Shown here one piece after another: positions 6,393 to 22,665 of a stretch of DNA of 22,665 nucleotides (position 1 is its first letter; every line of letters starts with the position of its first letter). The notes beneath the pieces are model-generated. The model made no database searches. It saw only the letters and a program-made list of their open reading frames with translations, and was not told where the DNA came from. Made by a program: the position numbers and the translations under genes. Source of the DNA: a virus; the IMG/VR virus record IMGVR_UViG_3300029846_000266, positions 1 to 22,665 of that record; one strand, 5' to 3'.

Positions 6393-6482
6393 ATATTTCC
6401 CCCGCGTCCGTAAACTTAGGCCTTTACGAACCTTTGATAACGCGCGTGCGCGCGCGTATTAAAATAAAGTATATGCTCTCAC

Positions 6483-6505: not shown

Positions 6506-6510
6506 TGTGG

Positions 6511-6973: not shown

Positions 6974-6978
6974 AGCAT

Positions 6979-7819: not shown

Positions 7820-7849
7820 TCTCATCACTCTCCAAGCCTTTACACAAGT

Positions 7850-9337
7850 TTAACTGCACCACTCAGGCAGGTTTGCGCGCACGAGGGCCTCTGCGAAGGG
7901 CGGCGGCACGGCGTTGCCGCAGCGGGCGGTCTGTTTGAACTTCGGATATTCCCGCCCAGTGTAGTCCCGGTCGATTATGTAGTCGTCCGGGAATCCATTG
8001 GCACGATACAGCTCCCTCGGTATCAGCATGCGTAGGCCGATATCGGCTATGAAATACCACGCGCCTCCAAGCTCAAGCAGCAGCACCTCGTCATCCGCCA
8101 GCGCGTACCCGCAGTGAATATTGAGCAGGCCGCGGATCTTCAGCCAGTTGTGCAGCACTGCGCCCGGCTCCGCTTTCCGCACCTCTGTAGTGACCACGCC
8201 ATGATGACCTCCGCCCGCGGTGATGGTCTGCACCGGCTCATAAACCGCTCCGCCGAGGTTTGTGCCCTTCATCTTGACCAGGCTTGCAAGCGTCAGGCCA
8301 GCGCGGTCTCGCGCTGTAACAGTGCGCAGAGGGACCGTCACGTTCTGCCCATGGCGCTCAGCGCCGTAATATGCAGTCAGCGATGCCGCCGCCAGCCCGT
8401 AACGGTTGGCGGCGTCTATTGTCATCAGTGGCTCTGTCACGTTCTGCCCCCGGATATGCTCGTGCCGCTCCGTGTGATACTGGATGATGTAAGGCCGGCA
8501 GGCTCCACGTTCCCCAGGCCTTTCCGCAGCAGGCACTGCATACAGTGCCGACGACCTAATCACAAACTTGTCCACGCCGCGGATGACACGCCGCATGGTG
8601 TTTGGGCTGAGTGGTCGCTGTGCGGTGAGGCCGTACTTATCTCGCACTTCCTTCCGCGTGTCAAAGATGGACGGGCATGGCAGCGACCAGTCGATGATTT
8701 CCGCCGCGCTCCTCCACGGCTTTCTCACCCCCGCCTTCGCCTCCGGGCTGTCAGCCGGCGCGTGGGTAGGCTCCGGCCACGCGATGGGCCGCCCGTCGCA
8801 GCGGGCAATGAGGAAAAACCTCTTGCGCGTTGTTGGCGCGCCATAGTCCGCGGCTACCAGCTCGCGCCACTCGACGTCATACCCCAAGTCCCGGAGCTGC
8901 CCCAGCCACTTTGTGAATGTCTGACCGGCCTTTGATTTTACCGGGCGTCCACGACGCACCGGTCCCCAGGTCTGGAACTCCTCCACGTTCTCCAGGATGA
9001 TCACCCGCGGCCGCACCGTTCCCGCCCAGCGCAGGACGATCCAAGCGAGGCCCCTGATATGCTTGTCCACGGGCTTCCCGCCCTTGGCTTTGGAGAAATG
9101 CTTGCAATCCGGGGACGCCCACAGCAGGCCCACCGGCCTGCCGGCGCAGACCTCCACGGGGTCAACATCCCACACGCTGGCCTGAATGTGCTCAGTGCGC
9201 GGGTGGTTCGTCTTGTGCATGAGTATTGCGTCCGGGTCGTGGTTGATAGCGATATCGACCGGCCGCCCGGTCGCGAGCTCAATGCCCGTAGACGCTCCGC
9301 CGCCTCCGGCAAAGCTGTCGACTATGAGCTCTCTCAT
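7850..9337 (-). CDS. DNA (cytosine-5)-methyltransferase (495 aa)
   Basis: Motif I is DSFAGGGG. A catalytic-Cys motif SPDCKHFS, an ENV motif (IILENVEEF) and motif X GNAVPP near the C-terminus are also present. Confidence 0.85.
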   Translation of the reverse strand: MRELIVDSFAGGGGASTGIELATGRPVDIAINHDPDAILMHKTNHPRTEHIQASVWDVDPVEVCAGRPVGLLWASPDCKHFSKAKGGKPVDKHIRGLAWIVLRWAGTVRPRVIILENVEEFQTWGPVRRGRPVKSKAGQTFTKWLGQLRDLGYDVEWRELVAADYGAPTTRKRFFLIARCDGRPIAWPEPTHAPADSPEAKAGVRKPWRSAAEIIDWSLPCPSIFDTRKEVRDKYGLTAQRPLSPNTMRRVIRGVDKFVIRSSALYAVPAAERPGERGACRPYIIQYHTERHEHIRGQNVTEPLMTIDAANRYGLAAASLTAYYGAERHGQNVTVPLRTVTARDRAGLTLASLVKMKGTNLGGAVYEPVQTITAGGGHHGVVTTEVRKAEPGAVLHNWLKIRGLLNIHCGYALADDEVLLLELGGAWYFIADIGLRMLIPRELYRANGFPDDYIIDRDYTGREYPKFKQTARCGNAVPPPFAEALVRANLPEWCS

Positions 9338-9663
9338 TCACCCCGCCCTCCCATTTTCTGCTCATATTTCTCGCGCGTTCCTTTATATTTGCGCACCATT
9401 GCCCGCTCTTCCTTTAGCATCTCCATCTGCCCCGGCGTCAGCAGCGGGGCACGGCGGTTCCAATCGGCCAATGCCGTCTTTTCCGAACTGTGCCACTCAG
9501 CCATCGTCCCGCAGTCGCTGCACCTATATCCAAACTCTCCGCAGGCATACATACTTTTTATGTCTGCACCGGCGCATGAAGGGCACGGTATTGCCACCCC
9601 TTGATCCGTCAGCCTCTCTGCTGCGTCGTGGTCTCCAAGCATCGCGCGTTGTATGTCAGTCAT
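9334..9663 (-). CDS. Lar-family restriction-alleviation-like protein (109 aa)
   Basis: The protein has a zinc ribbon (CPSC...CSDC) followed by the family hallmark ALADWNRRAP. ATGA overlaps link it to both neighbours. Confidence 0.65.
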   Translation of the reverse strand: MTDIQRAMLGDHDAAERLTDQGVAIPCPSCAGADIKSMYACGEFGYRCSDCGTMAEWHSSEKTALADWNRRAPLLTPGQMEMLKEERAMVRKYKGTREKYEQKMGGRGE

Positions 9664-10460
9664 CTGAATTCCTCCATCCTGTAGTTAAGTTCGTCATCGA
9701 GCATCGCCCAGCGGAACACTTTGTCGTCTGGAGATAGGAGGCCCATGTCCTCAAGCTCGAAGCGGCGGTCAAAGTCGTGTGCGGTGTGCCCGTCAGCCTT
9801 TAACGTTACAGGGCTATCTCTATCCCATTTGAGCATCAGCGCCCAAAGCTCAGGGTAATTGTGTCGCAGGATACGTAGCTGATTAACGCTTTGATTGTGG
9901 CAATACCAGCACCCGCCGCGCGCCGATGAGGTATATATTGGCGATAGTAGGTTATTTTCTTCGCACCAGCGTCGGCAGTCTGCCTCTGTCCATCCTGCTT
10001 CTAATAGCGGGGAGCGTTTCTTGTCAGACAATACATGAAACCTGCTAGGTTCGTCTGCGGCTATGCCAACATACTGCATTGCGTCCTTCGGCAGTTTCCC
10101 AAGTACATGCTGTTTAAGTCGAGAGTTACACCATGGGCCGCGCTGAAAGGGCCAGCCATAAATGCTCCCAGCACATTTGCTTTTTGCCGCCCGCCCATTG
10201 TTGCCGCATATCATATAAAAACAATCTTGATATGTGTATTTACTGCGAATATGTTCGACAGTGATGCCCCAGCGGTCTTTGATAGTCTTATCGGCGTATG
10301 CCTTAAACTCCACCATCGGCGGCAAATCCGCTGGTATTGTATCCGTTGCCCATACCTCAGCGTGGACTATGCGGTCAAGCGGCCATCCCAACTGTTCGAT
10401 GGCTCCGAGACACGCAAGGCTGTCTTTACCATGGCTTAGGCACAGTATGTGCTCCGACAT
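9660..10460 (-). CDS. PAPS reductase / PP-loop ATP-pyrophosphatase family protein (266 aa)
   Basis: It has a PP-loop-like LSHGKDS at the N-terminus and a C-terminal GGCWYCHNQ. The start at 10458-10460 follows GAAGGAGGAG. Confidence 0.7.
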   Translation of the reverse strand: MSEHILCLSHGKDSLACLGAIEQLGWPLDRIVHAEVWATDTIPADLPPMVEFKAYADKTIKDRWGITVEHIRSKYTYQDCFYMICGNNGRAAKSKCAGSIYGWPFQRGPWCNSRLKQHVLGKLPKDAMQYVGIAADEPSRFHVLSDKKRSPLLEAGWTEADCRRWCEENNLLSPIYTSSARGGCWYCHNQSVNQLRILRHNYPELWALMLKWDRDSPVTLKADGHTAHDFDRRFELEDMGLLSPDDKVFRWAMLDDELNYRMEEFR

Positions 10461-10773
10461 TGTCCGCTCCTCCTTCAACAAATCCCAGCTCCCGCAGCAG
10501 CTCGTGTGGGACAGGGATCACTTCATAACGTGACTTGATCCGCCGTGTCTCGTCGCGCTCCGTCCACTCGTGGCTGAGCAGCACACGTTCCCCTGCTGTG
10601 CCGAGGTGCAGATAATGCCGCTCCCCCTCGAGCGAGAACTGAAGCAGGCACGCCCCGCTCGGGTATCGTACAAAGCGTTGCCCGCCTTTCTGCCCTGTCT
10701 TAATGCCGTAATGCTTAGCCAGGCGCAGCATCCTCGCCGGAGTGATATTAAGCCTCCGCCCCGCCGCATCCAT
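10426..10773 (-). CDS. Hypothetical protein (115 aa), possible N-terminal HTH
   Basis: ATG 10771-10773 lies 6 nt after GGAGG. The sequence ITPARMLRLAKHYGIKTGQ looks HTH-like. Confidence 0.45.
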   Translation of the reverse strand: MDAAGRRLNITPARMLRLAKHYGIKTGQKGGQRFVRYPSGACLLQFSLEGERHYLHLGTAGERVLLSHEWTERDETRRIKSRYEVIPVPHELLRELGFVEGGADNVGAHTVPKPW

Positions 10774-11338
10774 GCCCGTCCTCCGTATCAAACCAGTTCC
10801 GGCTCTCAAGCCAGGTCCATATTGGCCCAGGCTCATCCGGGCGGCTCAGCCTCACCGCCAGCGCCGACTCGCTGTCACTCAGCACTACGCAGCCGGTCTG
10901 TAGGTATGACACATAAGCAGTGTTCCGCTCTCGCAGAGCCCAGCCGGGACCGATGCCGTATATATGTTCGTCCAACGTCTGAACAAGCTGCTGGGCCCCG
11001 AGCCGCAGCGGCAACAGCGCGCAGGGCCGCTCCGCATAGCTGCGATTGAAATATGTACTGTACTCAGTCTCGAAAACCTCGTCCTGCATGCCCTGTGCGC
11101 TCCAGCCGCTCTTCCCTTTCGAGACGCTCAGGCAGTCTCCGGGACCGGGCACATAGCCGAGCATTTCCACAAGCGCGGCAAGGACGATCTTCGGCGGCTC
11201 GTCCATCGCATCCAGCTGCAAGCTCGCGGCCCAGCCAGGGCCGAGCAGATCCATGCGCCCGCCTAGTACCCGCAGCCGTAAGCCCACAGTTCCCGAGCTC
11301 TTGAGCGCACGAGCCAGCCTCTTTTCATTTATTATCAT
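10748..11338 (-). CDS. Hypothetical phage protein (196 aa from MIINEKRLARAL)
   Basis: ATG 11336-11338 is preceded by GAAGGAGAA. Confidence 0.5.
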   Translation of the reverse strand: MIINEKRLARALKSSGTVGLRLRVLGGRMDLLGPGWAASLQLDAMDEPPKIVLAALVEMLGYVPGPGDCLSVSKGKSGWSAQGMQDEVFETEYSTYFNRSYAERPCALLPLRLGAQQLVQTLDEHIYGIGPGWALRERNTAYVSYLQTGCVVLSDSESALAVRLSRPDEPGPIWTWLESRNWFDTEDGHGCGGAEA

Positions 11339-11849
11339 TTCCGTTCTCCTTCGCCACCTTGTTTGGCGGCCATCCATTGTAATTTCGCCAGTTGCTTATC
11401 TTGGCAGGCGGCACTCCCAACCTGTCTGCTATTTGCCTGTCCGTGAGCCCCTGCTTGTACAGTTCCCTGCGCAGGTCATATTCCGGGACCCGTGCGCTGT
11501 TTATGGGCAGCTCGTTTACCCTGCGCCATCGCTGTACCGATCTGACTCCCGTGCCGCAGCGCTCGGCGATTTCGGCATCGGTGCAGCCGGCCTTATAGAG
11601 TTTCAGGCGATGTGCGTTCAGCTTGGCCCGCTTTTCCAGTGCTTCCGCAAATCTCAGCCGGCCGCGGACCTCATCGGCTATCTGCTTGCGCATCTTATCT
11701 CCGCGCGGCCCCAGCTCCCGGCACCGGCAGCCGTCCCCGCTGGGTTCGCCCATTGTATATGCCCTGCTCACTCGCCGGTTCAGGCAGTACAGGCAGGCGA
11801 CAAGGTCCTCATCGAGATGTATGCACCCGATACAGTACTCAGTTATCAT
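11325..11849 (-). CDS. DNA-binding protein with an N-terminal Cys cluster and two tandem HTH units (174 aa)
   Basis: An internal duplication is visible: LYKAGCTDAEIAERCGTGVRSVQRWRR and LYKQGLTDRQIADRLGVPPAKISNWRN. CIGC...CLYC lies at the N-terminus. Confidence 0.55.
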   Translation of the reverse strand: MITEYCIGCIHLDEDLVACLYCLNRRVSRAYTMGEPSGDGCRCRELGPRGDKMRKQIADEVRGRLRFAEALEKRAKLNAHRLKLYKAGCTDAEIAERCGTGVRSVQRWRRVNELPINSARVPEYDLRRELYKQGLTDRQIADRLGVPPAKISNWRNYNGWPPNKVAKENGNDNK

Positions 11850-12168
11850 CGCCCGTTTCCCCGAGCATCTTCATCCGCTTGCCTGTATAGCGGCAGTATT
11901 CATGCTCGATCCTCGCCCCGGCGGATGACTCCCACCCCGGCAGGAAAGCGACCAGGTCCGCGCTGTCGATCATGGCGAGGCATATGCGCATATAGTCCGC
12001 GCTCTTCATGCCCTCGGGCAGGTGTGCCGGGTTCAGCACTATGTGTCCCTCGTTCTTCTGCTCCATGTGCGCGGAAAGAAACTTGCGCTTGTACTCGGGG
12101 TCTCCTGTGATTTTGCCAGCTATGTATACCTTCAGCGGCGCCACCGCCGCGGTCTGTATCGCAGTCAT
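11839..12168 (-). CDS. DUF4406-type protein (nucleoside 2-deoxyribosyltransferase-like fold), about 109 aa
   Basis: The pattern VYIAGKITG...GHIVLNPA...YMRICLAMIDSADLVAFLPGWESSAGARIE matches the DUF4406 pattern as I remember it. The start is either ATG 12166-12168 or GTG 12178-12180. Confidence 0.7.
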   Translation of the reverse strand: MTAIQTAAVAPLKVYIAGKITGDPEYKRKFLSAHMEQKNEGHIVLNPAHLPEGMKSADYMRICLAMIDSADLVAFLPGWESSAGARIEHEYCRYTGKRMKMLGETGDDN

Positions 12169-12183
12169 GCTATTGTCCACTCC

Positions 12184-12606
12184 TCAAAATAATCTTGTCT
12201 GGCGTTCTTCGACTTCGCGCAGCGCCGCCTGCTCGGCGGCCCGCGCCTCTGCCCGTTCCCGCCGTGCCTGGGCCTCAGCCCGCTCCCGGAGCACCTGTTC
12301 ATGTATGCGCTGCTCAAGTGGAGTCCGTTTCCGTTCTCCCGGCGGCGCCTTGTCCCTGCGCCGGCCGGGGCAGCGGCCCCAGTGCGGCACGTAGCCGCTC
12401 TCCTGCGGTACTGCGGGATGTCCGACCAGCGTCCCCCGCTCATATGAGCCGTCGCGCTGATAGAACAGCAGCGGCCCGTCGGCATCCGGCCAGTAGAGCA
12501 CTGGCTCCGCCTCGCAGGGCATGTTCTTCCCCGCCCGCGTGCGGATGAATATCAGAGGCTTGCCGCACTCGCGGCAGGGTATCTCAAACCGCTCCTGTCT
12601 TGCCAT
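12184..12606 (-). CDS. Hypothetical zinc-ribbon protein with an Arg/Glu/Ala-rich helical tail (140 aa)
   Basis: ATG 12604-12606 follows AAAGGAGG. CRECG...C is near the N-terminus. Confidence 0.5.
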   Translation of the reverse strand: MARQERFEIPCRECGKPLIFIRTRAGKNMPCEAEPVLYWPDADGPLLFYQRDGSYERGTLVGHPAVPQESGYVPHWGRCPGRRRDKAPPGERKRTPLEQRIHEQVLRERAEAQARRERAEARAAEQAALREVEERQTRLF

Positions 12607-12784
12607 AGCCTTCCGCCTCCTTTGCCGGGCCCAGCTTCTTTGTCCGGCACTCATGCGCAATGGGCAGCCAGCGCACGCCCCAAACCTTCGCCGCCGCGAT
12701 GATGGCGCGCAGCCTGTCCTCCGCCGTTACCTCCACGTCCTCATAGAGATCGTGCCGTACTTCCCACCTGTCCACGCCGCTCAC
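12584..12784 (-). CDS. Hypothetical protein (66 aa, GTG start)
   Basis: A GTGA start/stop overlap with the upstream gene suggests translational coupling. Confidence 0.4.
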   Translation of the reverse strand: MSGVDRWEVRHDLYEDVEVTAEDRLRAIIAAAKVWGVRWLPIAHECRTKKLGPAKEAEGYGKTGAV

Positions 12785-13080
12785 CTGCCAAAGAGCCGCG
12801 AGAAAAGAGAGGCGAAAGGTTTTTTAATTTCCATTTCTACAACGTCTGCGTCCTTGGCCGCCTCAATAGCCTCATCCATAAGTCCGGGGAATTGTGTCTC
12901 CAGCGTTTTAAGCCCCATAAGGGCGCTCGCATATGTGCTTATCAGCGTTTCCCGGTCGCCCTGTATACTGGTCAAAAAGTGTGCTTCTCCTGCGCTGCCA
13001 AACGCGCCCAGCGCGCAGTCGCACTCCCGCTCAAGCAGCGGCTTGTCCTTGCCCTTTTCTCTGATAGTAACGATGTACAT
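12781..13080 (-). CDS. Hypothetical protein (99 aa from MYIVTIREKG)
   Basis: ATG 13078-13080 lies 7 nt after GGAGG. Confidence 0.5.
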   Translation of the reverse strand: MYIVTIREKGKDKPLLERECDCALGAFGSAGEAHFLTSIQGDRETLISTYASALMGLKTLETQFPGLMDEAIEAAKDADVVEMEIKKPFASLFSRLFGR

Positions 13081-13121
13081 GTCCATTCCTCCGTCGTCAT
13101 ATTTGCAAGCGGCCCAGCCGC

Positions 13122-13751
13122 TCACCACACATATCCATAGCAGAACACATGCGCCCCTATCCGCCCCCACACCCTGTCATTCTCGGCGCCGCGGGAGAAG
13201 TACAGCACCTCATACGGCACGACCTCAGTCTCAAACGCCGCGTCCACGGCCTCGTAGTTGGCCTCATTCGGCACCACGCTCCCAAGGATGGGCGCAGTTG
13301 AAAACTGCCGTTCCTGGTATATGACCTCGCTCACCGTGTCCGGGAAGCTCTCGGAGCGCACGCGGTTGAGCACCACCTGGGCCACCGCGATCTGCCCCTC
13401 AAGCGTTTCCGTGTTTGCCTCGGCATACACCACGCGGGCGAGCAGCTCCCGCTCCTCCGCTGTGATTTCCTCATACCGCGGCTCTGGTTCAGGCTCAGCG
13501 GGCGGTTCAGGTATCTGCGGCTCATGTGCCGCCACGTCCGGCGCTACCGCCAGATGCGCCGCCAAGGCGGCGGAGCTGTAAACAGGCGCGGGCAGCTCAC
13601 TTGCCGCCCGCGCCTCCTGCGCACTCAGGCGCAGCGATATGATGGCGGCGAGGATGATGAGCAGCACGCACAGTGCTATGTACCCGGCCAATACGGCCTT
13701 CCCCCTCCAATTTCTCATCTTTCCCCGCCGCCTTTCTTTTGTGTTCTTCAT
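13122..13751 (-). CDS. Membrane-anchored SleB-like cell-wall hydrolase (Hydrolase_2-type domain)
   Basis: LLARVVYAEANTETLEGQIAVAQVVLNRVRSESFPDTVSEVIYQERQF matches the SleB/CwlJ-type domain pattern. An N-terminal TM segment (AVLAGYIALCVLLIILAAIISL) is present. The start is 13751 or 13718. Confidence 0.7.
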   Translation of the reverse strand: MKNTKERRRGKMRNWRGKAVLAGYIALCVLLIILAAIISLRLSAQEARAASELPAPVYSSAALAAHLAVAPDVAAHEPQIPEPPAEPEPEPRYEEITAEERELLARVVYAEANTETLEGQIAVAQVVLNRVRSESFPDTVSEVIYQERQFSTAPILGSVVPNEANYEAVDAAFETEVVPYEVLYFSRGAENDRVWGRIGAHVFCYGYVW

Positions 13752-13765
13752 GTGAGCGCGTTCCC

Positions 13766-14149
13766 TTAGTGGATGTCCACTATCATCACCTTGCCGCCGC
13801 TCAGTGTTGCCGCGAGCTGCAGCTGCTCCAGGCATTCAAGGCTCTCACAGCGCTCCAGCATAGCCGCCAGCTCCATGAGCAGCAGCGCCGCCCCTCCGCG
13901 GTCCCTGTCCGCCCGGCCCGGCGCTTCCGGTGCCAGTGCGTTGACCTCCCGCGCAGCTTCCGACTCCGCCGCCGCCTTCTGCTTGGGCTTTGGCCCCGGC
14001 TTCACATATCCGCTCTCCGGATTGCGCAGGAGGATATCCTTTATCCAGTCCGCCTTTACCGCATTCAGCTCCGCCAGCACCTTGATTTGCTTGGGCTTGT
14101 TCTTCGCCGTCCGGTACTCCCGGACGATTTCGCTTTCGGACATAACCAT
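13766..14149 (-). CDS. Hypothetical protein (127 aa; N-terminus SESEIVREYRTAKNKPKQIKVLAELN)
   Basis: SD GAGGGG lies 7 nt upstream of the ATG. The gene is packed in the operon. Confidence 0.5.
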   Translation of the reverse strand: MVMSESEIVREYRTAKNKPKQIKVLAELNAVKADWIKDILLRNPESGYVKPGPKPKQKAAAESEAAREVNALAPEAPGRADRDRGGAALLLMELAAMLERCESLECLEQLQLAATLSGGKVMIVDIH

Positions 14150-14162
14150 GTTTGTACCCCTC

Positions 14163-14360
14163 TCAGTCCGCCAGCACGTAGCCGTACGGGCGTATTATCC
14201 TGTTGATACCGCTGCGCATGCGCGAGCGTTCCTCCTCCGTCGTCGGCCGCCGGTGTACGATACAGGTCGTGACGCCCTGCTTTGGGCCATAGTCGTACCG
14301 TAATATGTACCCGTCCTCGGTCTCCTCTTTCGTGATTATCGGATATACAGGCTCCGCCAC
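14163..14360 (-). CDS. Hypothetical small protein (65 aa, GTG start)
   Basis: SD GGAGGTGA lies 6 nt upstream of the GTG. Confidence 0.45.
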   Translation of the reverse strand: MAEPVYPIITKEETEDGYILRYDYGPKQGVTTCIVHRRPTTEEERSRMRSGINRIIRPYGYVLAD

Positions 14361-14419
14361 AGCCCCTCACCTCCACCTTCAAGCCTATGTGTGCCCGCAG
14401 TTGCCCTATGCCTTGCCGT

Positions 14420-14944
14420 TCAGGCGCTCCCGTTCATAGCCTCGAACAGGTCGCAGCTGTCCTTCCAATTTGGGTACTTGAATCCTCTGCCTCTTGGGCA
14501 GCAATGTCCGCGACTAATGGGGCTGAACGCGCCTGAAGCCGTAATAACGTAGTGTTGGTGGAAATTACGACAGTTTGCGCACACTTTATCGTTGTTGGAA
14601 ATTTTGAAGCATTCTCGGGCCTCTTTCAGGGCCTTTTCTGCCGTTCCGAGAACAATGAACCGCGCTATTACTGCCAGTGCTCTTACGTTTAGTGAACAAG
14701 TATCGCCCGTTCTCTTTGTCTCCTCTTTTTCAGTCTCCTCGTCCCAGCCCATCAGATGAGCCGCGTTTGTTTCCAAGGCGTGTGCAATCGGTTCCAGATA
14801 CTTGGAAGGGATTTTCTCAATGTCGCCGTTTTCATATCGGTACACAGTTGCGCGCGACACTCCTAGCACCTTGGCAACCTCATCGACGGATATCTTTAAG
14901 CTTTTGCGCCGCTCCTTCATTCGTTCTCCAAATGTCTTTGGCAT
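14420..14944 (-). CDS. XRE-family HTH regulator with a C-terminal Cys-rich domain (174 aa)
   Basis: The N-terminal HTH is ISVDEVAKVLGVSRATVYRYENG. The C-terminus contains CANC...HCC...C. SD is GAGGAGG. Confidence 0.75.
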   Translation of the reverse strand: MPKTFGERMKERRKSLKISVDEVAKVLGVSRATVYRYENGDIEKIPSKYLEPIAHALETNAAHLMGWDEETEKEETKRTGDTCSLNVRALAVIARFIVLGTAEKALKEARECFKISNNDKVCANCRNFHQHYVITASGAFSPISRGHCCPRGRGFKYPNWKDSCDLFEAMNGSA

Positions 14945-15026
14945 GGGCTTGTGAACCTCCTCTTGCTCTCTCGCCTTTTTTACTGCGCTAAGCTTTTACA
15001 GCGCGGAGAACCGCATATTAAAACAT

Positions 15027-15055
15027 TTGCCAACTTGTCCCATGAATGGTATTAT
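15027..15055 (+). promoter_or_regulatory. Sigma-70-type promoter with an extended -10 (TTGCCA-N17-TATTAT, with TGg before the -10)
   Basis: Read directly: -35 at 15027-15032, TG at 15047-15048, -10 at 15050-15055. Confidence 0.55.
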
Positions 15056-15061
15056 TATTTG

Positions 15062-15517
15062 TTGATAAAAGCACCCAGGCAACGCCGAGCCAAGCCCCGC
15101 AAAAAAAGGGGGGGGGAAGGTGTAACGACTGGACACGGGGCATCCCACGTGGATGAAGGCACAGTCTGAACTCACGGGCGACCGTGAGAGGCAGGCAGAA
15201 ATGACTTGCCCGCGCCGTCAGGCGAAGTAACAATATGGATGTCTAGCGTAAGTATGAACGATGACATTGGTTACATTTCCGGCATGCTTTCTGGTATTAG
15301 CACTGTCAACACACTTACAGCCAGCATTATCAACCCCATAGATATTACTGGTGTAACATTAGCGAGCGAGGTGGTCACATCGCCCTGCTGCCCGGCGACG
15401 GGCGGTATGCACTCCGTAAATTCGGCGAAAATCTGGGTGCTCTTATCGACAAACTGGGCAAGCCTTGCTTAAATTTGTTCCATCCCGCCCGCGCTCATCC
15501 AGCGCGGGCTTTTTATT
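15062..15517 (+). ncRNA. Candidate ~450-nt plus-strand transcript without a convincing ORF (a possible structured RNA or a decayed gene)
   Basis: The unit is bounded by the promoter above and an intrinsic terminator. It contains hairpins at 15141-15155, 15171-15188 (GCGA loop) and 15390-15403 (GCGA loop). No in-frame ATG has an SD. Confidence 0.35.
15488..15517 (+). terminator. Intrinsic terminator (CCCGCGCT-CATCC-AGCGCGGG + CTTTTTATT), plus strand only
   Basis: An 8-bp perfect stem is followed by a T-run. There is no T-run on the opposite strand. Confidence 0.75.
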
Positions 15518-15543
15518 ACCGCCGCTCACGTCCTCACCTCCTC

Positions 15544-15572
15544 TTGTCCGCCTCCGCGCCCGGTGGTAAAAT
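15544..15572 (+). promoter_or_regulatory. Second extended -10 promoter (TTGTCC-N17-TAAAAT, with TGg before the -10)
   Basis: Read directly from the sequence. It lies 25 nt upstream of the ATG of the 70-aa ORF. Confidence 0.5.
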
Positions 15573-15597
15573 CATCCGGAAGGGAGGTGACGATATG

Positions 15598-15810
15598 GCA
15601 TCTATTCGCCAGTACGATAAACCTTGGACTTGCGCCAAATCCGGACATGAAGAAAAGTTCGCCGTATACCTGTTGGCAGCGGATGACGGCACAATTCTTG
15701 ATGTCAAAGAGAATGGCTGTGAGAACATGGACGGAAGTGACGAATGCAACTCATGTCGCGCTCATGTTCTCCAGCAGCTCTATGAGCTCCACCTCGGTCA
15801 TCGGCTCTGA
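15598..15810 (+). CDS. Small Cys-containing protein (70 aa, MASIRQYDKPWTC...)
   Basis: A strong SD (GGAAGGGAGGTGA) lies 5 nt upstream of the ATG. The gene has its own promoter. The listed ORF starting at 15475 is an artefactual extension. Confidence 0.55.
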   Translation, partial: ASIRQYDKPWTCAKSGHEEKFAVYLLAADDGTILDVKENGCENMDGSDECNSCRAHVLQQLYELHLGHRL

Positions 15811-16029
15811 TAAGCGGATCGTGTGCGCCCGGTCATATGCCGCTGGCAAAAGTCCGCGGCGCACAAGTATTTCCGACAGGCAGACAATGGCGCCGTAAGC
15901 TTCTTCCGCGTGCGGCGTGTCCCTTGTGAACGCCTCCAGTGCGAACAGATACGCCTCTATGTATCTCCTGTCCCGTGTTTCGGAGTTCGGATACTCCCTG
16001 TCAAAGCCGACAAGTTCAAGTGCGCTCAC
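15751..16029 (-). CDS. Hypothetical early protein (92 aa, GTG start)
   Basis: SD TAAGGAGGTGAGGAC lies directly before the GTG at 16027-16029. The gene follows the second XRE gene in the early operon. Confidence 0.55.
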   Translation of the reverse strand: MSALELVGFDREYPNSETRDRRYIEAYLFALEAFTRDTPHAEEAYGAIVCLSEILVRRGLLPAAYDRAHTIRLSEPMTEVELIELLENMSAT

Positions 16030-16041
16030 GTCCTCACCTCC

Positions 16042-16245
16042 TTACTGCGCCGTCTGTTCCACAGGCAGTTCAAATAGCTTCTCGATGTTACACCCAAGCA
16101 CATTGGCAAGTTTGGGAAGCACCGCGCTTTTTGGCGAACTTATACCGCGCTCCCATTTGGCAATGGTCGAGCGATCTACTCCCATTGCTCGTGCTAAGTC
16201 AACTTGCCTTAACCCCGCCTCTTGTCTGAGCCGTGCTATATTCAT
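16042..16245 (-). CDS. XRE-family HTH protein (67 aa from MNIARLRQEAGL)
   Basis: The HTH is LRQVDLARAMGVDRSTIAKWERG. ATG 16243-16245 lies 7 nt after GAAGGAGG. Confidence 0.75.
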   Translation of the reverse strand: MNIARLRQEAGLRQVDLARAMGVDRSTIAKWERGISSPKSAVLPKLANVLGCNIEKLFELPVEQTAQ

Positions 16246-16253
16246 TGCAATTG

Positions 16254-16346
16254 CCTCCTTCGCTATGTGAAAATGTGCGATATTGGAAACTTTTACGCTA
16301 TGTCCTCTTTCGCTATGTAAAAATGTGCGATAATGGAAACTTTTAC
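16254..16346. repeat. Direct repeat, 2 x 43 bp at 50-bp period (40/43 identical), containing three copies of CGCTATGT
   Basis: The two units are 16254-16296 and 16304-16346. The repeat sits between the two XRE genes and includes the SD of the downstream gene and the stop of the upstream gene. Confidence 0.9.
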
Positions 16347-16561
16347 TGCGCCTGTATCGGAGCAAACAGCTCGTCAATGCTTACATTCAGTGCCCCCGCA
16401 AGCGTGGGTATTTCATCTCCGTACACAGGGCGCTTGCAGTTGAGGATCCTGGAAAGGGTGTCTTTTCTCATTCCGGTTCGCTCTGCAACAACTTTTTGCA
16501 TTCGCCCTTCTTGCTCGATGATTCTCTTAAGATTTCTATTAACGATGTAGCTCTTTTCCAT
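16343..16561 (-). CDS. Cro-like XRE-family HTH protein (72 aa)
   Basis: This is the first gene of the leftward operon, divergent from the CI-like gene. The HTH is QKVVAERTGMRKDTLSRILN. Confidence 0.75.
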   Translation of the reverse strand: MEKSYIVNRNLKRIIEQEGRMQKVVAERTGMRKDTLSRILNCKRPVYGDEIPTLAGALNVSIDELFAPIQAQ

Positions 16562-16601
16562 TTAATCGCCCCCAACTCAACATACAATAGAATTTGTATC
16601 T

Positions 16602-16630
16602 AATATACTCTACGTTCCGTTGAGTGTCAA
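16602..16630 (-). promoter_or_regulatory. Leftward early promoter (TTGACA-N17-TATATT)
   Basis: Read on the minus strand: -35 at 16625-16630 and -10 at 16602-16607. Confidence 0.6.
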
Positions 16631-16661
16631 GCTATATTTTTTGCGTTAGCTCAATTTCCCG

Positions 16662-16689
16662 TTGACTTTTGCCCAACTACATGTATAAT
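16662..16689 (+). promoter_or_regulatory. Rightward repressor promoter (TTGACT-N16-TATAAT)
   Basis: Read on the plus strand. It lies 21 nt upstream of the ATG of the CI-like gene, which has SD AAGGAG. Confidence 0.6.
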
Positions 16690-16709
16690 CAATCCAAGGA
16701 GTTGATTGC

Positions 16710-17201
16710 ATGAGTGTCACCGAAATAGGGCGGAGGCTCAAAAAAGCACGCCTTGACGCGAAAATGACGCAAGCCGAGGCTGCCAGGAATCTAGGAGTAT
16801 CGTTTCAGACAATAAGCAGTTATGAGCGCGGGATAAACCGCGTCGATAGTGACACACTTATGAAACTGTGCGCTATATATAAGACCTCCGTGGGCGAATT
16901 GCTGAGAACTCCGGCATGGTCAAAAGATATGCGCGAGGAATATGAACGTGCTTCCGAAGAACGTAAAGACCGACTTATCGAGTTATGGGGCTGTCCCGAC
17001 TTCCTCATTGAACGGGAAAATCAGAAGCGTGAACCGGACACGTCACATCTATCTGCTTTAGATGAAGCCATCCTTTATGCTTATCATAGAGCCACGAAGG
17101 AGGACCGGGAAATGTTCGATAATTTAGTCCGTCGCTATGTGCCCTCCTTTGAAGGTGAGCAAGAGGACCCCGCAGATCAGGCACCGGCAAGTGCAGGCTG
17201 A
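16710..17201 (+). CDS. CI-like prophage repressor, XRE-family HTH (163 aa)
   Basis: The HTH is MTQAEAARNLGVSFQTISSYERG. A C-terminal non-HTH domain is present, and the gene is divergent from the early operon. Confidence 0.8.
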   Translation: MSVTEIGRRLKKARLDAKMTQAEAARNLGVSFQTISSYERGINRVDSDTLMKLCAIYKTSVGELLRTPAWSKDMREEYERASEERKDRLIELWGCPDFLIERENQKREPDTSHLSALDEAILYAYHRATKEDREMFDNLVRRYVPSFEGEQEDPADQAPASAG

Positions 17202-17224
17202 TTGACTTCAACGAATACAAGAAA

Positions 17225-17248
17225 AAGCGCGGCCTGTAGCCGCGCTTT
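17225..17248 (+). terminator. Hairpin after the repressor gene (AAGCGCGGC-CTGTA-GCCGCGCTT); a weak terminator
   Basis: The stem is a perfect 9 bp. Only TTT follows on the plus strand. Confidence 0.4.
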
Positions 17249-17287
17249 GGGAGGAGGTGTTATGCAACGTCCGCTGCTCTAGAAGTT

Positions 17288-17677
17288 TTGGGTTTAACCT
17301 TTGCGCTATATGTCGTAGGCAGGCTACTGGCGAACTATGAAATGTATCGAGAGGATCAGGAAAAAGATGATTTTCTAAACAAGCTGCTTGCAGGGGCTGC
17401 TTGTTTATGCTTCTATTTAGGTATTATATCGACCGGCATTGTGTATCTGGTCCAGATATACCCACGAAAAAGACTAGAGAAAATCGTTAGCCGTGAAACC
17501 CGGGAGGAATGCGAAAAACACCATGAAATCGAAATTAATGCTCTAAAGCGAGAGCTGCACAGCATAAAAAAAGAGATGGGCTTTCAAGAAGCGCTCTGGA
17601 AAGACCGCGAAATCCGCTACAAGTATAAAATCGAGGCATTGCAGTACGAGCTCTCTCAGCGCTGTGGGCGCCAATAA
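17288..17677 (+). CDS. Membrane protein with a C-terminal coiled coil (129 aa, TTG start); possible superinfection-exclusion or lysogenic-conversion function
   Basis: It has two hydrophobic segments (LTFALYVVGRLL and LLAGAACLCFYLGIISTGIVYLV) followed by a charged heptad-like region. It lies downstream of the repressor on the same strand. Confidence 0.5.
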   Translation: MGLTFALYVVGRLLANYEMYREDQEKDDFLNKLLAGAACLCFYLGIISTGIVYLVQIYPRKRLEKIVSRETREECEKHHEIEINALKRELHSIKKEMGFQEALWKDREIRYKYKIEALQYELSQRCGRQ

Positions 17678-17704
17678 AAAAGCCGCCCCTCCCGAGGCGG
17701 CTTT
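17676..17704. terminator. Bidirectional intrinsic terminator between convergent genes
   Basis: AAGCCGCC-N8-GGCGGCTT is flanked by an A-run on the left and TTTGGTT on the right. The T-run is strong when read on the minus strand. Confidence 0.7.
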
Positions 17705-17710
17705 GGTTGA

Positions 17711-18187
17711 CTATTTTCTTCGTTCAAGCAGCTTGTCCCTAATCATTATTCTCCCTGCTGTGTCTGATAACCTGCCAGATTTGAGAAGCTGCAAATACCT
17801 CATAGCTTTACTGCGTACTTTGCGAATCTGGTTTTGGTTTCTGCTTATGTAATGGCGTCGGTCGATAAGAAACGGCTCTTTAATGTATGATTCATCAATG
17901 GGTATCATTTCACTTATCAGAAACACTCTTTCGCGCGATGCTATTTCTCCAATGTGGTAATAAATACAGTTGCCTTCGCCACGCTTCTGCTCCTCTCTGG
18001 CAATTTTCTTCTTGTAGTTTTCTACTTGGCTGCTCAAAGGGATGGCCCAATCTATTCCGTCGTGGTCTTTCAAAAGATAATAGAACGGCCTGTTTTCGCA
18101 TTTATTTTGAATGAGATACTTATTGGAAAACTCAACAAAGTACCTGTCCTGCACCTTATAAAGTCCGTTTTCTATCAGCCGCTCCAT
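17711..18187 (-). CDS. ToxN/AbiQ-family (type III toxin-antitoxin) endoribonuclease-like toxin (158 aa)
   Basis: By-eye similarity to ToxN: LYKVQDRYFVEF..NK.ENRPFYYLL...WAIPLSSQ versus FYTISSKYIEYL...KAFIGIVL...YLAPLTSPK, plus a shared MIPI motif. The size is typical and SD is GGGGAG. Confidence 0.65.
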   Translation of the reverse strand: MERLIENGLYKVQDRYFVEFSNKYLIQNKCENRPFYYLLKDHDGIDWAIPLSSQVENYKKKIAREEQKRGEGNCIYYHIGEIASRERVFLISEMIPIDESYIKEPFLIDRRHYISRNQNQIRKVRSKAMRYLQLLKSGRLSDTAGRIMIRDKLLERRK

Positions 18188-18196
18188 TCTCTATCT

Positions 18197-18231
18197 CCCC
18201 AAAAAAGAAGCCCTCCGCATGGGCAGAGGGC
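18197..18231 (-). terminator. Intrinsic terminator immediately upstream of the toxin SD
   Basis: On the minus strand, GCCCTC-N10-GAGGGC is followed by TTCTTTTTT, ending 10 nt before the ATG. Confidence 0.75.
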
Positions 18232-18373
18232 CTTTCTAGCCTGGTTCTTATACCCCGCACTCAGGCAAGCGGCCGTCGTAAGCAAGTCGCACTTTTATAG
18301 GCCGCTGGCGACAGGCGGCATAAGGCAATGACGGCGAACTTTGTTCGTGTCTGTGGAAAGCAATTGCTTCCCT
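18232..18373 (-). ncRNA. Candidate ~140-nt leader / antitoxin-position RNA (no tandem repeats)
   Basis: The segment lies between the predicted promoter and the terminator and has no ORF. Short helices occur at 18330-18335/18272-18277 and 18301-18319. Confidence 0.4.
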
Positions 18374-18379
18374 ATTGCC

Positions 18380-18408
18380 ATCATACGCTATTGTATTTCA
18401 AATTGCAA
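18380..18408 (-). promoter_or_regulatory. Promoter for the leader-toxin unit (TTGCAA-N17-TATGAT)
   Basis: Read on the minus strand. Palindromes lie nearby: ATTGCAAT at 18402-18409, ATGAATTCAT at 18411-18420 and AAGCAATTGCTT at 18358-18369. Confidence 0.5.
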
Positions 18409-18483
18409 TAATGAATTCATGTTTTTCTGAGCTTTCTGCTCTAGACAGTAATTTCTTTTACAGCATGTCAGTTCAGATATTTC

Positions 18484-20010
18484 ATGTTATTTAAAACAAT
18501 TCAAATTCAAGAAGGTGATGCTGTGTCCAACATGATGTATCTCCGCAAGAGCCGCGCGGAGGAGGGGCAGAGCACGGAGGAGGTGCTCTCGAAGCACCGG
18601 GCCGCGCTGGAGGAACTGGCCGACCGGCTCGGCCTGCCCGTGGACGGGGTGTATGAGGAAGTGGCGTCCGGTGAAAAGCTCTATGCGCGCCCGGAAATGC
18701 TCAAGCTGCTCGAGCGCATCCGGGCCGGCGAGGTAGAGGCCGTGCTGTGCATGGACATCGACCGCCTCGGGCGCGGCGGCATGGCTGACCAGGGCACCAT
18801 CCTGGACGCCTTCCGCGAGTCCGGCACGCTGATAATCACGCCTGAGAAAACCTATGACCTCACAAATGACGTCGATATCGAGATGACGGAGTTCAAGGCG
18901 TTCTTCGCCAGAGCCGAGTGGCGCGCCATCCGCAAGCGCATGCGCCGCGGCCTGATGCAGACCATAGAGGCAGGCGGCTACACGGCCAACGCGCCCTACG
19001 GCTACCGCCGCTGCCGCATCGGCAAGCTGCCATCGCTGGAGGTCATTCCCGAGGAAGCGCGTTTCGTGCGCTATATCTATGAGCGTTACCTCGCCGGTAT
19101 CGGCGCGCAGACCATAGCGCAGGAACTCAACGCCATGGGGAGCACCCCACGACGCGGGGCCGAGTGGAGCCGGAACACGGTGCGGCACGTACTGCGCAAT
19201 CCCACCTTCGCCGGTAAAGTCGCCTGGAACCGCGTGAAGCACTACCGCCCCGGAGCTCACGGGAAGGAAACGCACCACGTCGTTTACACCCCGGTGGGCG
19301 AGTGGCTGATGGTGGACGGCGTGCATGAAGCGATCATCCCATGGAGCACCTGGCTTGAAGCTCAGGAGCGCCGGAAGCAGCGATACATACCGCCCAGCAA
19401 CACTGGCCAGCGCGCAAACCCCTTCGCCGGCATCATCCGCTGCTCGAAGTGCGGAAACAATATGCAGCGCATGGGGACTAACAAAGGCGAGCCGTATCTG
19501 CTGTGTACCACAAAGGGCTGTACCGCCGGTGCGAAGTTCGAGTATGTAGAGGAGCGCATGGTCGAGCTGCTGTATGACGAGCTTGCCCGGCTCCGACTTC
19601 TCATAGACTCGGGCGCCGCGCCAAATGTTGACGCGCTGGAAGCCGCCCTTGCAGCCGCGCAGCGCGAGCTGGAGCGCGTACAGGCCCGCATCCCGCGTCT
19701 GTATGAATTCCTCGAGGACGGCACCTATGACCGCGCCACGTTCCGCTCAAGGCTCGACGCCGCCGAAAAAGAGCTTTCCGAGCTTGCGAGCAAGCGGACA
19801 GACCTCGAGCGCCAGATAGATGAGCGCCGCCGCAGCGACCCGCGCAAAGTCGCCGCCGCATTGGAGAATCTGGTCCAGCTCTACCCCACTATGTCCCCGG
19901 CCGACAAGAACAGTGCCCTAAAAGCACTCGGTGTGGAAGTAACCTACACCAAAGAGAAGAAAACCAAACCCCGCGACTTCACCCTGGAGCTCCAGCTCCG
20001 CGATTTTTAA
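18484..20010 (+). CDS. Large serine recombinase (phage integrase)
   Basis: The N-terminal resolvase domain has YLRKSRAEE (Ser nucleophile) and DIDRLGRGG. A recombinase domain (ARFVRYIYERYLAG..TIAQELN), a zinc ribbon CSKCGN...CTTKGC and a C-terminal coiled coil follow. The true start is probably GTG 18523 (after GAAGGTGA) or ATG 18532. Confidence 0.9.
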   Translation: MLFKTIQIQEGDAVSNMMYLRKSRAEEGQSTEEVLSKHRAALEELADRLGLPVDGVYEEVASGEKLYARPEMLKLLERIRAGEVEAVLCMDIDRLGRGGMADQGTILDAFRESGTLIITPEKTYDLTNDVDIEMTEFKAFFARAEWRAIRKRMRRGLMQTIEAGGYTANAPYGYRRCRIGKLPSLEVIPEEARFVRYIYERYLAGIGAQTIAQELNAMGSTPRRGAEWSRNTVRHVLRNPTFAGKVAWNRVKHYRPGAHGKETHHVVYTPVGEWLMVDGVHEAIIPWSTWLEAQERRKQRYIPPSNTGQRANPFAGIIRCSKCGNNMQRMGTNKGEPYLLCTTKGCTAGAKFEYVEERMVELLYDELARLRLLIDSGAAPNVDALEAALAAAQRELERVQARIPRLYEFLEDGTYDRATFRSRLDAAEKELSELASKRTDLERQIDERRRSDPRKVAAALENLVQLYPTMSPADKNSALKALGVEVTYTKEKKTKPRDFTLELQLRDF

Positions 20011-20025
20011 CCGCCATATTTATAA

Positions 20026-20060
20026 AACGGTCAGTCTTATGACAAAGACTGCATAGAAGA
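20026..20060. other. Candidate phage-host junction (hybrid att site) with the inverted repeat CAGTCTT-N6-AAGACTG
   Basis: The inverted repeat arms are at 20032-20038 and 20045-20051. Codon third-position GC changes around 20055-20060. Confidence 0.35.
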
Positions 20061-20724
20061 CCTCCGGGTTTACCCCACCGTCGGGTCCCAGACCTACATA
20101 GACAACGCCTTCAGCGTCCGGCCCAAGAGCGCGGAGCTGCTGTATGCCGAGGTGAACGTCGAGGCCATCACCTTCAACAAGGGCTATTACACCGTAGACG
20201 TCACATATTTCTACAAGATAACGGGCGAGACCTTCCCCGGCGGGAACACCGTCACGGGACTCGCCATCTTCGACAAGCGCGTCATGCTCTGCGGCGGCGA
20301 GGGCACGGTAAAGACGTTCTCGTCCGACCTGTGCGACTGCAGCTGCGTGGACGACGGCATGCCCACCGCCTACGTCGAGGCCGTCGACCCCATAGCGCTG
20401 CACCTCAAGCTCGTAGACGCCAACTGCAACGTCTGCTGCGACAACGACAGACACGACATCCCGGCCTGCATCCTCGCCCGCTTCGGTGAGGCGCTGGTCA
20501 CCACCGACACCGGCCGCAGGCTGTATGTCACCCTCGGCCAGTTCTCCATCATCCGCCTTGAGCGCGACACCCAGCTGCTCATCCCGGCCTACGATTACTG
20601 CGTGCCCGAGAAGGAATGCGCCGGCGGCCGCTGCAACGACGACCCCTGCGAGATCTTCTCCCAGATCCGCTTCCCCGTCGAGGAGTTCTTCCCCTCCGGC
20701 GACTGCACCACGACCACCAGCTGA
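20026..20724 (+). pseudogene. 3' portion of a Cys-rich gene apparently split by the prophage. The frame is open from 20026, and the first possible start codon is GTG at 20152.
   Basis: 42 in-frame sense codons precede the first ATG/GTG/TTG. They have high GC3 from about 20059 onward and no SD anywhere. The frame opens 16 nt after the integrase stop. Confidence 0.5.
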
Positions 20725-21270: not shown

Positions 21271-22665
21271 TTACGCGAGCTCGCGTCCCATGAGGACGCC
21301 CATGGCGGAGGCCATCATGAGGCCGCGGGTCCAGCCGGAGGAGTCGCCCAGGGCATGGAGGCCGGGGACATTGGTGTTGAAGCTGGTGTCCATCTTGACC
21401 TTGTTGGAGTAGAACTTCAGCTCCGGGGAATACAGCAGCGTCTCGTAGGACGCGAAGCCGGGGACGACTTCGTCCATGGACTTGATGAAGTTGATGATGT
21501 TTATCATCGCGCGGTAAGGCATGGCGGCGGTGATATCGCCCGCGACGGCGTCCACCAGGGTGGGACGGACGTTGGAGTAGGCCAGCTCCTTCTCCCAGGT
21601 GCGCTTGCCGTCGAGTATGTCGCCGAAGCGCTGGACAAGGATGTGGCCGTTGGCCAGCATGTTGGTCAACTCGCCGACCTTCTGCGCGTAGGCGATGGGC
21701 TGGTTGAAGGGCACGGAGAAGTTGTGCGAGCAGAGGATGGCGACGTTGGTGTTCGGGCTCTTGAGGTCGGCGCCCTTGAAGGCGTGGCCGTTGACGACGG
21801 CGAGGTCGTTGTCGTAGTTCTCCTGGCTCACGACGCCGCCGGGATTCTGGCAGAAGGTGCGGACCTTGTTCTTGAAGGGCTTCGGATAGCCGATGAGCTT
21901 GGACTCATAGAGGACGTCGTTTATCTCCTCCATGATCTCGTTCCTGACCTCGACGCGGACGCCGATATCGACGGTGCTGGGCTGGTGCTCCACGCCGTGC
22001 TCGGAGCAAATCTTCTCCAGCCAGTCCGCGCCGCGGCGGCCGGTGGCGACGACGGTGTGCTCCGCGCGGATCTCAAAGTCCTTCTTGCAGTCCGTGAGGT
22101 ACACGCCGCGGCAGACGTCGCCCTCCATGATGAGGTCGCGGCACTCGGTGTCGAAGTACATCTCGACGCCATGGTCCATGAGGTAGTGCTCTATGCCGAG
22201 GTAGACGTCGTGCGCCTTCTCGGTGCCCATGTGGCGGATGGGGCAGTCCACGAGCTTGAGTCCGGCCTTGATGGCGCGGGCGCGGATGCGGCGGACCTTC
22301 TCATCGTTGCCGATGCCCTCGATGTGCTCATCGGCGCCGAACTCGAGGTAGATCTTGTCGGCGTAGTCGATGGTCTCCTGGGCCAGGCGCTCGCCAATTA
22401 GCGTGGGCAGGTCGCCGCCGACCTCGCAGGCCAGGGAGAGCTTGCCGTCCGAGAACGCGCCGGCGCCGGAAAAGCCCGTGGTGATATGGCAGATGGGCTT
22501 GCAGTTCATGCAGACGCCGGTCTTGGCCTTGGGGCAGCTGCGCTTTTCAAGGGCGCGGCCTTTCTCGACCATCACTATCTTCTTCTTGCTGCCCCGGCGC
22601 AGCATCTCGAGCGCCGTGAATATACCGGCAGGTCCCGCGCCGACGATGACGACATCTGCATTCAT
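21271..22665 (-). CDS. NAD(P)/FAD-dependent oxidoreductase (464 aa; COG2509-like)
   Basis: The N-terminal Rossmann motif is VVIVGAGPAGIF. A Cys cluster CPKAKTGVCMNCKPIC is present. The ORF is full length, with its ATG at the window edge. Confidence 0.8.
   Translation of the reverse strand: MNADVVIVGAGPAGIFTALEMLRRGSKKKIVMVEKGRALEKRSCPKAKTGVCMNCKPICHITTGFSGAGAFSDGKLSLACEVGGDLPTLIGERLAQETIDYADKIYLEFGADEHIEGIGNDEKVRRIRARAIKAGLKLVDCPIRHMGTEKAHDVYLGIEHYLMDHGVEMYFDTECRDLIMEGDVCRGVYLTDCKKDFEIRAEHTVVATGRRGADWLEKICSEHGVEHQPSTVDIGVRVEVRNEIMEEINDVLYESKLIGYPKPFKNKVRTFCQNPGGVVSQENYDNDLAVVNGHAFKGADLKSPNTNVAILCSHNFSVPFNQPIAYAQKVGELTNMLANGHILVQRFGDILDGKRTWEKELAYSNVRPTLVDAVAGDITAAMPYRAMINIINFIKSMDEVVPGFASYETLLYSPELKFYSNKVKMDTSFNTNVPGLHALGDSSGWTRGLMMASAMGVLMGRELA

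Follow-up and report, generated by a model that had tools for sequence, protein, structure and literature searches.

The DNA analysed here (the window; 22,665 nucleotides, IMG/VR record IMGVR_UViG_3300029846_000266) contains the right-hand half of a prophage that splits a host gene. In our reading, to which we assign a probability of about 0.85, the element is a functional temperate phage that was integrated by its serine integrase into a conserved attB site within a gene for a 259-aa Cys-rich protein. The prophage, ~40 kb long, resides in an uncultured Oscillospiraceae bacterium of the gut. Each of the four attachment sites was found: the window contains attR, strains with an empty site contain attB, a related prophage provides attL, and attP is present in two ~41-kb contigs.

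The prophage and the split gene

The main features of the window are as follows.

1..20040, both strands: right-hand half of an integrated temperate phage (PHROG and Pfam matches; relatives with the same right junction)
18532..20010, plus strand: large serine recombinase (phage integrase); open frame from 18484 onwards, start at 18532 in public gene calls
20041..20724, plus strand: promoterless 3' fragment of the Cys-rich gene without a start codon, codons 33–259 and the stop codon (alignment with intact homologues)
21271..22665, minus strand: host FAD-dependent oxidoreductase, a marker of the host flank (Pfam; same protein in lysogen and non-lysogen contigs)

Prophage genes with PHROG and Pfam matches include those for the portal, large terminase, replication initiator, DNA methylase, endolysin and a Cro-like regulator on the minus strand, and for the repressor and the integrase on the plus strand. 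The packaging, replication, lysis and lysogeny modules look complete. Related IMG/VR prophages of ~43 kb have the right junction in common with the window, and a source-type contig (L005) is 100% identical to window positions 1–10918. The latter breaks in an IS110-family element 1.5 kb to the left of position 1, so that the window's own attL is not reached. The IS110 transposase gene (L005 11033–12211, about 115–1300 bp left of the window) lies inside the prophage and adjoins a 305-aa head-module gene.

Several other loci of the prophage were noted. The lysis module encodes a protein (13122–13751, minus strand) with a Hydrolase_2 domain of the SleB/CwlJ spore-cortex-lytic type, according to a precomputed Pfam match of the identical L171 gene. 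The divergent region between the Cro-like and repressor genes contains three copies of ACATAGCGAA (about 16250–16310, minus strand), which are probably operator sites of the lysis-lysogeny switch. Beside the integrase is a toxin of the CptIN family of type III toxin-antitoxin systems (17711–18187, minus strand; NF047359, 108 bits, cutoff 90). It is preceded on the same strand by a sigma-70-like promoter (18408–18380) and a terminator (18233–18208), located where the repeats of an antitoxin RNA are expected; neither a tandem repeat nor an Rfam family was found in this region (18208–18408).

The integrase matches Resolvase (PF00239, 3e-21, residues 18–165), Recombinase (PF07508, 1.6e-25) and Zn_ribbon_recom (PF13408, 3e-07), and its residues 366–464 give weak matches of the coiled-coil type. 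The nucleophile motif Y-x-R-x-S is present as YLRKS at residues 19–23 of the 508-aa ORF; the gene call in lysogen contigs is 492 aa long. The protein thus has the resolvase domain with its motif, followed by the Recombinase, zinc-ribbon and C-terminal coiled-coil parts of a large serine recombinase. Its sole relative in PDB is SprA/YokA of SPbeta (E 7e-36, aligned over residues 17–492). DNA of the integrase region has no match among isolated phage genomes. At the protein level, the nearest integrases from isolated phages (35–37% identity) include that of PhiS63, which integrates into sigK (PMC3442830), and those of the C. tetani phages phiCT453A, 19406A and C2A. The names of the latter suggest that they are the sigK-resident site-A prophages of PMC5553647, whose text does not name them.

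Immediately downstream of the integrase, the sequence-only reading had described a 190-aa Cys-rich ORF (20152–20724) whose frame stays open for 42 codons ahead of it, and had proposed that a serine-integrase prophage splits the gene at an inverted repeat. Each of its sequence observations proved accurate: the open frame begins at 20026, behind a TAA at 20023–20025 and 16 nt beyond the integrase stop; the 42 extra codons include no ATG, GTG or TTG; and the ORF encodes 13 Cys. The third-position GC content of the fragment, which had been called host-like, is 0.91; the neighbouring host gene has 0.92 and the integrase 0.78.

A homology search with the 232-aa extended frame yielded 5,837 homologues, almost all of 259–265 aa, at 94–97% query coverage. 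The homologues begin with MADRVLPGPVDxxACIREAVCVHTKKI(F/Y)DSCR followed by DKDCIEDLRVYPT, and the window matches them from DKDC onwards (nt 20041). The 37 codons at 20041–20151 are 90–100% identical to residues 33–69 of the intact proteins, and the homology ends abruptly at the att crossover; the residues encoded by 20026–20040 (NGQSY) have no match in the homologues and are phage sequence that is in frame by chance. As a split gene would require, the intact homologues extend upstream of the annotated ORF, by 32 residues before nt 20041 and by about 69–74 residues before the GTG at 20152.

Contigs that encode the identical FAD oxidoreductase fall into two classes. Lysogens (L171, L174) have the integrase and the 190-aa gene call next to the same flank, and empty-site contigs (L172, L173) have no phage, their intact 259-aa gene being followed by genes for DUF4364 and AsnA. 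Since the non-lysogen L172 equals the window at every position of 20041–22665 (0 mismatches in 2,625), an otherwise identical strain with an empty site exists. The gene is split by the prophage, exactly at the inverted repeat, as both the intact homologues and the isogenic empty-site gene demonstrate.

Between the target gene and the FAD oxidoreductase gene lies a ~540-bp cassette (20725–21262) with a 66-aa HTH protein (21027–21227, plus strand) and a 53-aa ORF (20774–20935, minus strand). Lysogens and non-lysogens (L171–L177) have it, and L001 has a ~50-bp hairpin in its place; the cassette varies between strains and has no relation to the prophage.

Attachment sites and related integrases

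attL was located by a search with the predicted 5' fragment of the gene, and attP by a search of metagenome contigs with the predicted site. Matches to the pattern of the attP arm in two further contigs, L010 and L170, were rejected as chance, being in unrelated contexts. The elements of the sites are listed below.

20021..20040, plus strand: phage-derived P arm of attR, TATAAAACGGTCAGTCTTAT; the same in IMG/VR lysogens L006–L009 and in attP of L178 and L179
20041..20042, plus strand: predicted crossover dinucleotide GA, first two bases of the Asp33 codon of the target gene
20041..20051, plus strand: 11-bp core GACAAAGACTG common to attB and attP (comparison of attB of L001 and L172, attP of L178, attL of L011, and attR)
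20032..20051, no strand: inverted repeat CAGTCTT / AAGACTG with a 6-nt spacer, accounted for by the palindromic attP
attB (L001, L172): ...ATCTATGATTCTTGCAGG-GA-CAAAGACTGCATAGAAGACC; short form ...TTGCAGG-GA-CAAAGACTGCAT
attR (window, 20021 onwards): TATAAAACGGTCAGTCTTAT-GA-CAAAGACTGCATAGAAGACC
attL (L011, L012): ...GATTCTTGCAGG-GA-CAAAGACTGACCGTTTTAAAAAAC; short form ...TTGCAGG-GA-CAAAGACTGACCGTTTTA
attP (L178): TTATAAAACGGTCAGTCTT-ATGACA-AAGACTGACCGTTTTATAA, with perfect palindromic arms of 19 bp

The attR sequence is the same in four IMG/VR prophage contigs. The matching 5' fragment, predicted to lie at the other prophage end, was found on a single contig of a closely related prophage, rather than on the window's own contig. 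This 41,037-bp IMG/VR contig (UViG_3300045988_153289) encodes a portal protein 90% identical and an integrase 96% identical to those of the window, the integrase gene ending at the last base of the contig. Its attL contains the promoter of the gene, the ribosome-binding site and 35 codons, followed by a TGA contributed by the phage arm; there the host promoter is directed towards a terminator and convergent phage genes. Measured from attL to the position expected for attR, the prophage on this contig is ~40.3 kb long, in agreement with the lengths of the attP contigs.

Intact attP is found on L178 and L179 (41,280 and 40,602 bp), between the 3' end of the integrase gene and the end of a giant gene for a MuF_C-domain protein. 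These contigs could derive from virions, lytic replication or excised circles, and they are silent on the timing of excision. The giant gene encodes a polyvalent protein of 3,103 aa (587–9898 in L002–L004; about 840–10000, minus strand, in L011). It occupies the phage end opposite to the integrase, directly beside attP, and makes up nearly one quarter of the phage genome.

Three observations place the crossover at the GA of positions 20041–20042: the dyad of attP, with its spacer ATGACA, is centred on GA; phage-specific bases in attR extend up to 20040, with a T directly before GA; and attL of L012 has phage-type variant bases (GAAAGAGACTG) from the third base of the core, the attR of L009 from the same metagenome having a host-type core. 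Short attP and attB sites with imperfect dyad symmetry and exchange at a central non-palindromic dinucleotide are expected of a large serine recombinase, and the sites described here, with GA as the predicted dinucleotide, agree with this. The inverted repeat reported at the junction in the sequence-only reading (20032–20038 and 20045–20051) is indeed present and is the sole one in the region. It is not a chance feature, since its left arm is the end of the attP arm and its right arm lies in the GACAAAGACTG core common to attB and attP; it is the inner end of the P arm paired with a part of attB that mimics the P' arm. In the host, the stretch that contains attB is the best conserved of the gene, with ~100% conservation of codon positions 1 and 2 (79 genomes).

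The same codon of the orthologous gene is occupied by at least seven other elements with integrases 43–62% identical to that of the window, in either orientation. In two species-representative genomes (L030 and L074) an integrase with 62% and 54% identity, respectively, is directly upstream of the orthologous 3' fragment, which is cut at the same codon. Of the IMG/VR records whose integrases are 43–53% identical, two (L190 and L191) have the integrase followed by the 3' fragment, and in three others (L188, L189 and L193) the 5' fragment converges on the integrase, that is, the orientation is opposite. It is also flipped in the lysogens L002–L004, where the giant gene is beside attR. A different core is seen in L192 (IMGVR_UViG_3300029769_000069, about 4470–4540), which has an intact palindromic attP (ATAAAGCGGTAGGTGTTACTCATAACACCTACCGCCTTAT) after an integrase of 43% identity and so points to a sister lineage that uses another target.

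L074 (DIRC01000045.1, Clostridiales bacterium UBA5446, positions 1–6700) has a peculiar arrangement. The 5' stub with the promoter is inverted, and 5.4 kb with host genes for DUF4364, AsnA and tRNA-Gly separate it from the integrase, attR and the 3' fragment, which lie downstream. The cut in the stub falls at the same codon, and the phage arm of the stub forms an inverted repeat with the attR arm; recombination at such an arrangement would give inversion, not excision. Because a scaffold gap of 161 N lies inside the tRNA-Gly gene, a repeat-induced misjoin is likelier than a real inversion. The L074 integrase is the sole member of the clade with a strict match to the sigma-K-type promoter, 111 nt upstream (ACGCAATTTATGGCTAACTCATATACT).

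The target family and its predicted role in sporulation

The target fragment belongs to no Pfam or NCBIfam family. Neither 74 close members (E<=10) nor 10 more distant ones (E<=1) had a Pfam match, including the SPOCS domain PF12673, and a sequence-profile search of PDB found no relative. Foldseek comparison of an AlphaFold2 model (pLDDT 76, long beta-strands) with PDB gave no hit at E<0.01 or TM>0.2, which is a weak test of the fold and covers PDB only. Homology searches, including a second one from a distant member, returned only the name "hypothetical protein". The family is large: at 50% identity it forms 1,413 clusters, and species-representative genomes contain at least 597 matching loci, of which the best 80 are nearly all labelled as Oscillospiraceae or Clostridiales MAGs. 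The 232 residues encoded here contain 14 Cys, and runs of Cys are present in more distant members.

The upstream regions of the target gene share a conserved promoter motif, cACa-N16/N17-gcGCATA(G/C)ACTGTAnTGAAG (N16 in 53 cases, N17 in 12), found 36–57 nt before the ATG in 75 of 76 intact orthologues from 76 species; the consensus of the -10 region is gcGCATA(G/C)ACTGTA. In C. difficile, sigma-E and sigma-K promoters have the same -10 element and differ in the -35 element, which reads ATA in sigma-E promoters and AC in those of sigma-K (PMC3789822); on this basis the motif is of the sigma-K type. Transcription would be expected to start ~7 nt after CATAGACT. The strict pattern AC-N16-17-CATAnAnT followed by an ORF with a ribosome-binding site occurs 86 times in 0.97 Mb of related host DNA, and 79 of these occurrences are the promoter of the target gene (74 with the correct ORF, four mis-framed calls at the same promoter, and the 5' stub of L074).

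An inverted repeat conserved in sequence, TGAAG-N4-6-CTTCA, directly follows the -10 element in most of L013–L092 (also in L001, 1905–1935). Its place in the transcript would be the extreme 5' end, where it might form an mRNA-stabilising hairpin or serve as a regulator site.

A host contig encodes BofA, the inhibitor of pro-sigma-K processing (TIGR02862, 61.8 bits, cutoff 53.35; PF07441), together with a YaaL-like protein. Given the sigma-K-type promoter motif, the BofA of the host and the Cys-rich composition of the product, the target is a probable late mother-cell gene for a spore-envelope protein (coat or exosporium-like) of a family not previously described. A literature search found no prior description of this gene as a phage insertion site.

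Lysogenic disruption, possible programmed excision and known systems

We propose the following mechanism. Integration, with predicted strand exchange at the GA of codon 33 (20041–20042), leaves the gene in two pieces during lysogeny. The far (left) piece, as seen in related prophages, has the promoter, the ribosome-binding site and a stub of 35 codons; the piece in the window is a 3' fragment of 227 codons. As this fragment lacks a promoter, a ribosome-binding site and a start codon, the protein is presumably not made while the phage is integrated. Precise recombination of attL with attR by the integrase and a putative directionality factor would restore the gene exactly. Both end states of such a reaction exist in nature, as strains with an empty site and as phage contigs with intact attP. 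By default this may be ordinary lysogeny, a reversible knockout that would have no cost in vegetative growth and would be undone when the phage excises. Because the element is a complete and apparently active phage, plain reversible disruption is at least as likely as programmed excision.

Programmed excision would make the element a sporulation intervening element: in the mother cell it would be excised by the integrase with a sporulation-induced directionality factor, rebuilding the gene for sigma-K-dependent expression, and the forespore would keep the prophage. We regard this as a serious possibility, though one that we tend to doubt. It would fit the sigma-K-type promoter of the target in a host with BofA, and the devotion of a whole integrase clade to one codon across species. 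Kinship points in the same direction, the nearest integrases of isolated phages (35–37% identity) being those of the sigK-integrating PhiS63 and, by name, of the C. tetani site-A phages, and the sole solved relative being SprA of SPbeta; moreover, all tested prophage-like elements in mother-cell sporulation genes excise during sporulation (PMC10747680). The phage DNA itself speaks against it, or at any rate lends it no support. Strict and relaxed scans for promoters of sigma-E and of sigma-K in the window prophage and in related prophage segments revealed nothing conserved: neither AC-N16-17-CATAnAnT nor ATA-N16-18-CATAnAnT occurs in the 20 kb of the window prophage, no match is conserved among the related segments L011, L150, L101, L093 and L094 (left 10.5 kb and middle 22 kb), and the relaxed matches in intergenic regions are unconvincing. 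Nor is a sporulation-type promoter conserved upstream of the integrases of the clade, the strict match being restricted to L074; no directionality factor was recognised in the prophage, and the host promoter at attL runs into the terminator and convergent genes described above. Thus, of the earlier suggestion of an intervening element, the split, the 5' fragment and a late-sporulation-like target stand, and a sporulation promoter or a directionality factor in the prophage was not found.

It is improbable that the element is a defective, domesticated remnant of the skin type, unable to form phage and persisting as a gene interrupter only. An IS110 transposase inside the prophage just left of the window (on the source-type contig) and the very little phage DNA beside the L074 integrase could be taken as signs of decay. 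On the other side are the complete-looking gene modules, mosaic but full-length relatives of ~40–43 kb in many metagenomes, and the two ~41-kb contigs with intact attP. Furthermore, lysogens and non-lysogens share a background that is identical but for the phage, a sign of recent and active integration. That the gene is not split at all, but starts at the GTG at 20152 or at a non-canonical start behind a chance open frame of the kind expected in high G+C DNA, is refuted by the alignment of codons 20041–20151 with intact homologues, the break of homology at the crossover, and the isogenic empty site with the full gene.

The reading that we prefer, a functional temperate phage in a conserved coding attB, has several implications. 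To our knowledge, the documented examples of sporulation genes interrupted by phages come almost exclusively from cultured species of Bacillus and Clostridium. The present case extends phage-interrupted predicted sporulation genes to the abundant, uncultured Oscillospiraceae of the human gut. It offers a recombination system whose parts are all defined (the integrase of 492 aa, the palindromic attP, the attB in a highly conserved coding motif, and the central GA), with related integrases on hand for comparison, and it draws attention to a widespread Cys-rich family, so far unannotated, as a probable component of the spore envelope made late in the mother cell. As lysogens and non-lysogens differ at the locus only by the phage, spore-surface and transmission phenotypes tied to phage carriage are testable in metagenomes and enrichment cultures.

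We speculate, tentatively, that in gut Oscillospiraceae and related Clostridia a clade of large-serine-integrase phages has specialised in a single codon of a previously unrecognised, sigma-K-dependent gene for a Cys-rich spore-envelope protein, which would be rebuilt by excision in the mother cell; we hold this extended scenario to be rather doubtful. If true, phage carriage would be coupled to the assembly of the spore surface, and hence to transmission, in uncultured commensal spore-formers, and the target family would be a major unannotated component of the spore coat or exosporium.

The Cys-rich proteins CsxA and CsxC of C. sporogenes and CdeC of C. difficile are spore-envelope proteins of Clostridia with a SPOCS/DUF3794 fold (10.64898/2026.09.03.749163). 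The target resembles them in being Cys-rich, beta-rich, expected late in the mother cell and limited to Clostridia, which is analogy and not membership. A SPOCS/CsxA-type identity found no support, as the 74 close and 10 distant members scanned have no match to PF12673 and the model has no Foldseek match in PDB.

Judged from sequence, the element would have the structure of an intervening element. It is of prophage nature; it lies inside a gene whose sigma-K-type promoter (75 of 76 orthologues), BofA-encoding host and Cys-rich product point to sporulation, with no annotated relative; and the end states of precise excision, the intact isogenic gene and the intact attP, are present in public assemblies.

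The closest parallel is SPbeta in spsM of B. subtilis, with SprA and SprB. In both cases a temperate phage, active and equipped with a large serine integrase, interrupts a host gene, which is a mother-cell spore-envelope gene (predicted here) whose frame is restored by precise excision (as would be expected here). In contrast to the Cys-rich protein considered here, SpsM is an enzyme of polysaccharide synthesis; the phages are unrelated and differ in size (134 kb versus 40 kb), no SprB-like factor with a sigma-E/K promoter was found in our prophage, and its host is an uncultured gut Oscillospiraceae bacterium.

The residents of sigK, namely PhiS63 of C. perfringens, the site-A prophages of C. 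tetani and the skin elements of B. subtilis and C. difficile, likewise have a serine recombinase, lie inside a late mother-cell sporulation gene (predicted here) and vary in orientation relative to the gene. Their target is the sigma factor itself, whereas the gene split here is of a structural type, so that its disruption should alter the spore surface rather than block late sporulation; the kinship of the integrases is distant, at 35% identity.

The same general class includes yin in yabG of C. botulinum, vfbin in spoVFB and gin in gerE, prophage-like elements in sporulation genes with an attB conserved in empty strains and with circular excision (PMC10747680). For these elements growth-phase- or sporulation-dependent excision was measured, whereas here excision is read from the end states. 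The arrangement described here is of the same kind as SPbeta in spsM, PhiS63 in sigK and yin in yabG; the target gene, the phage lineage and the host group are new.
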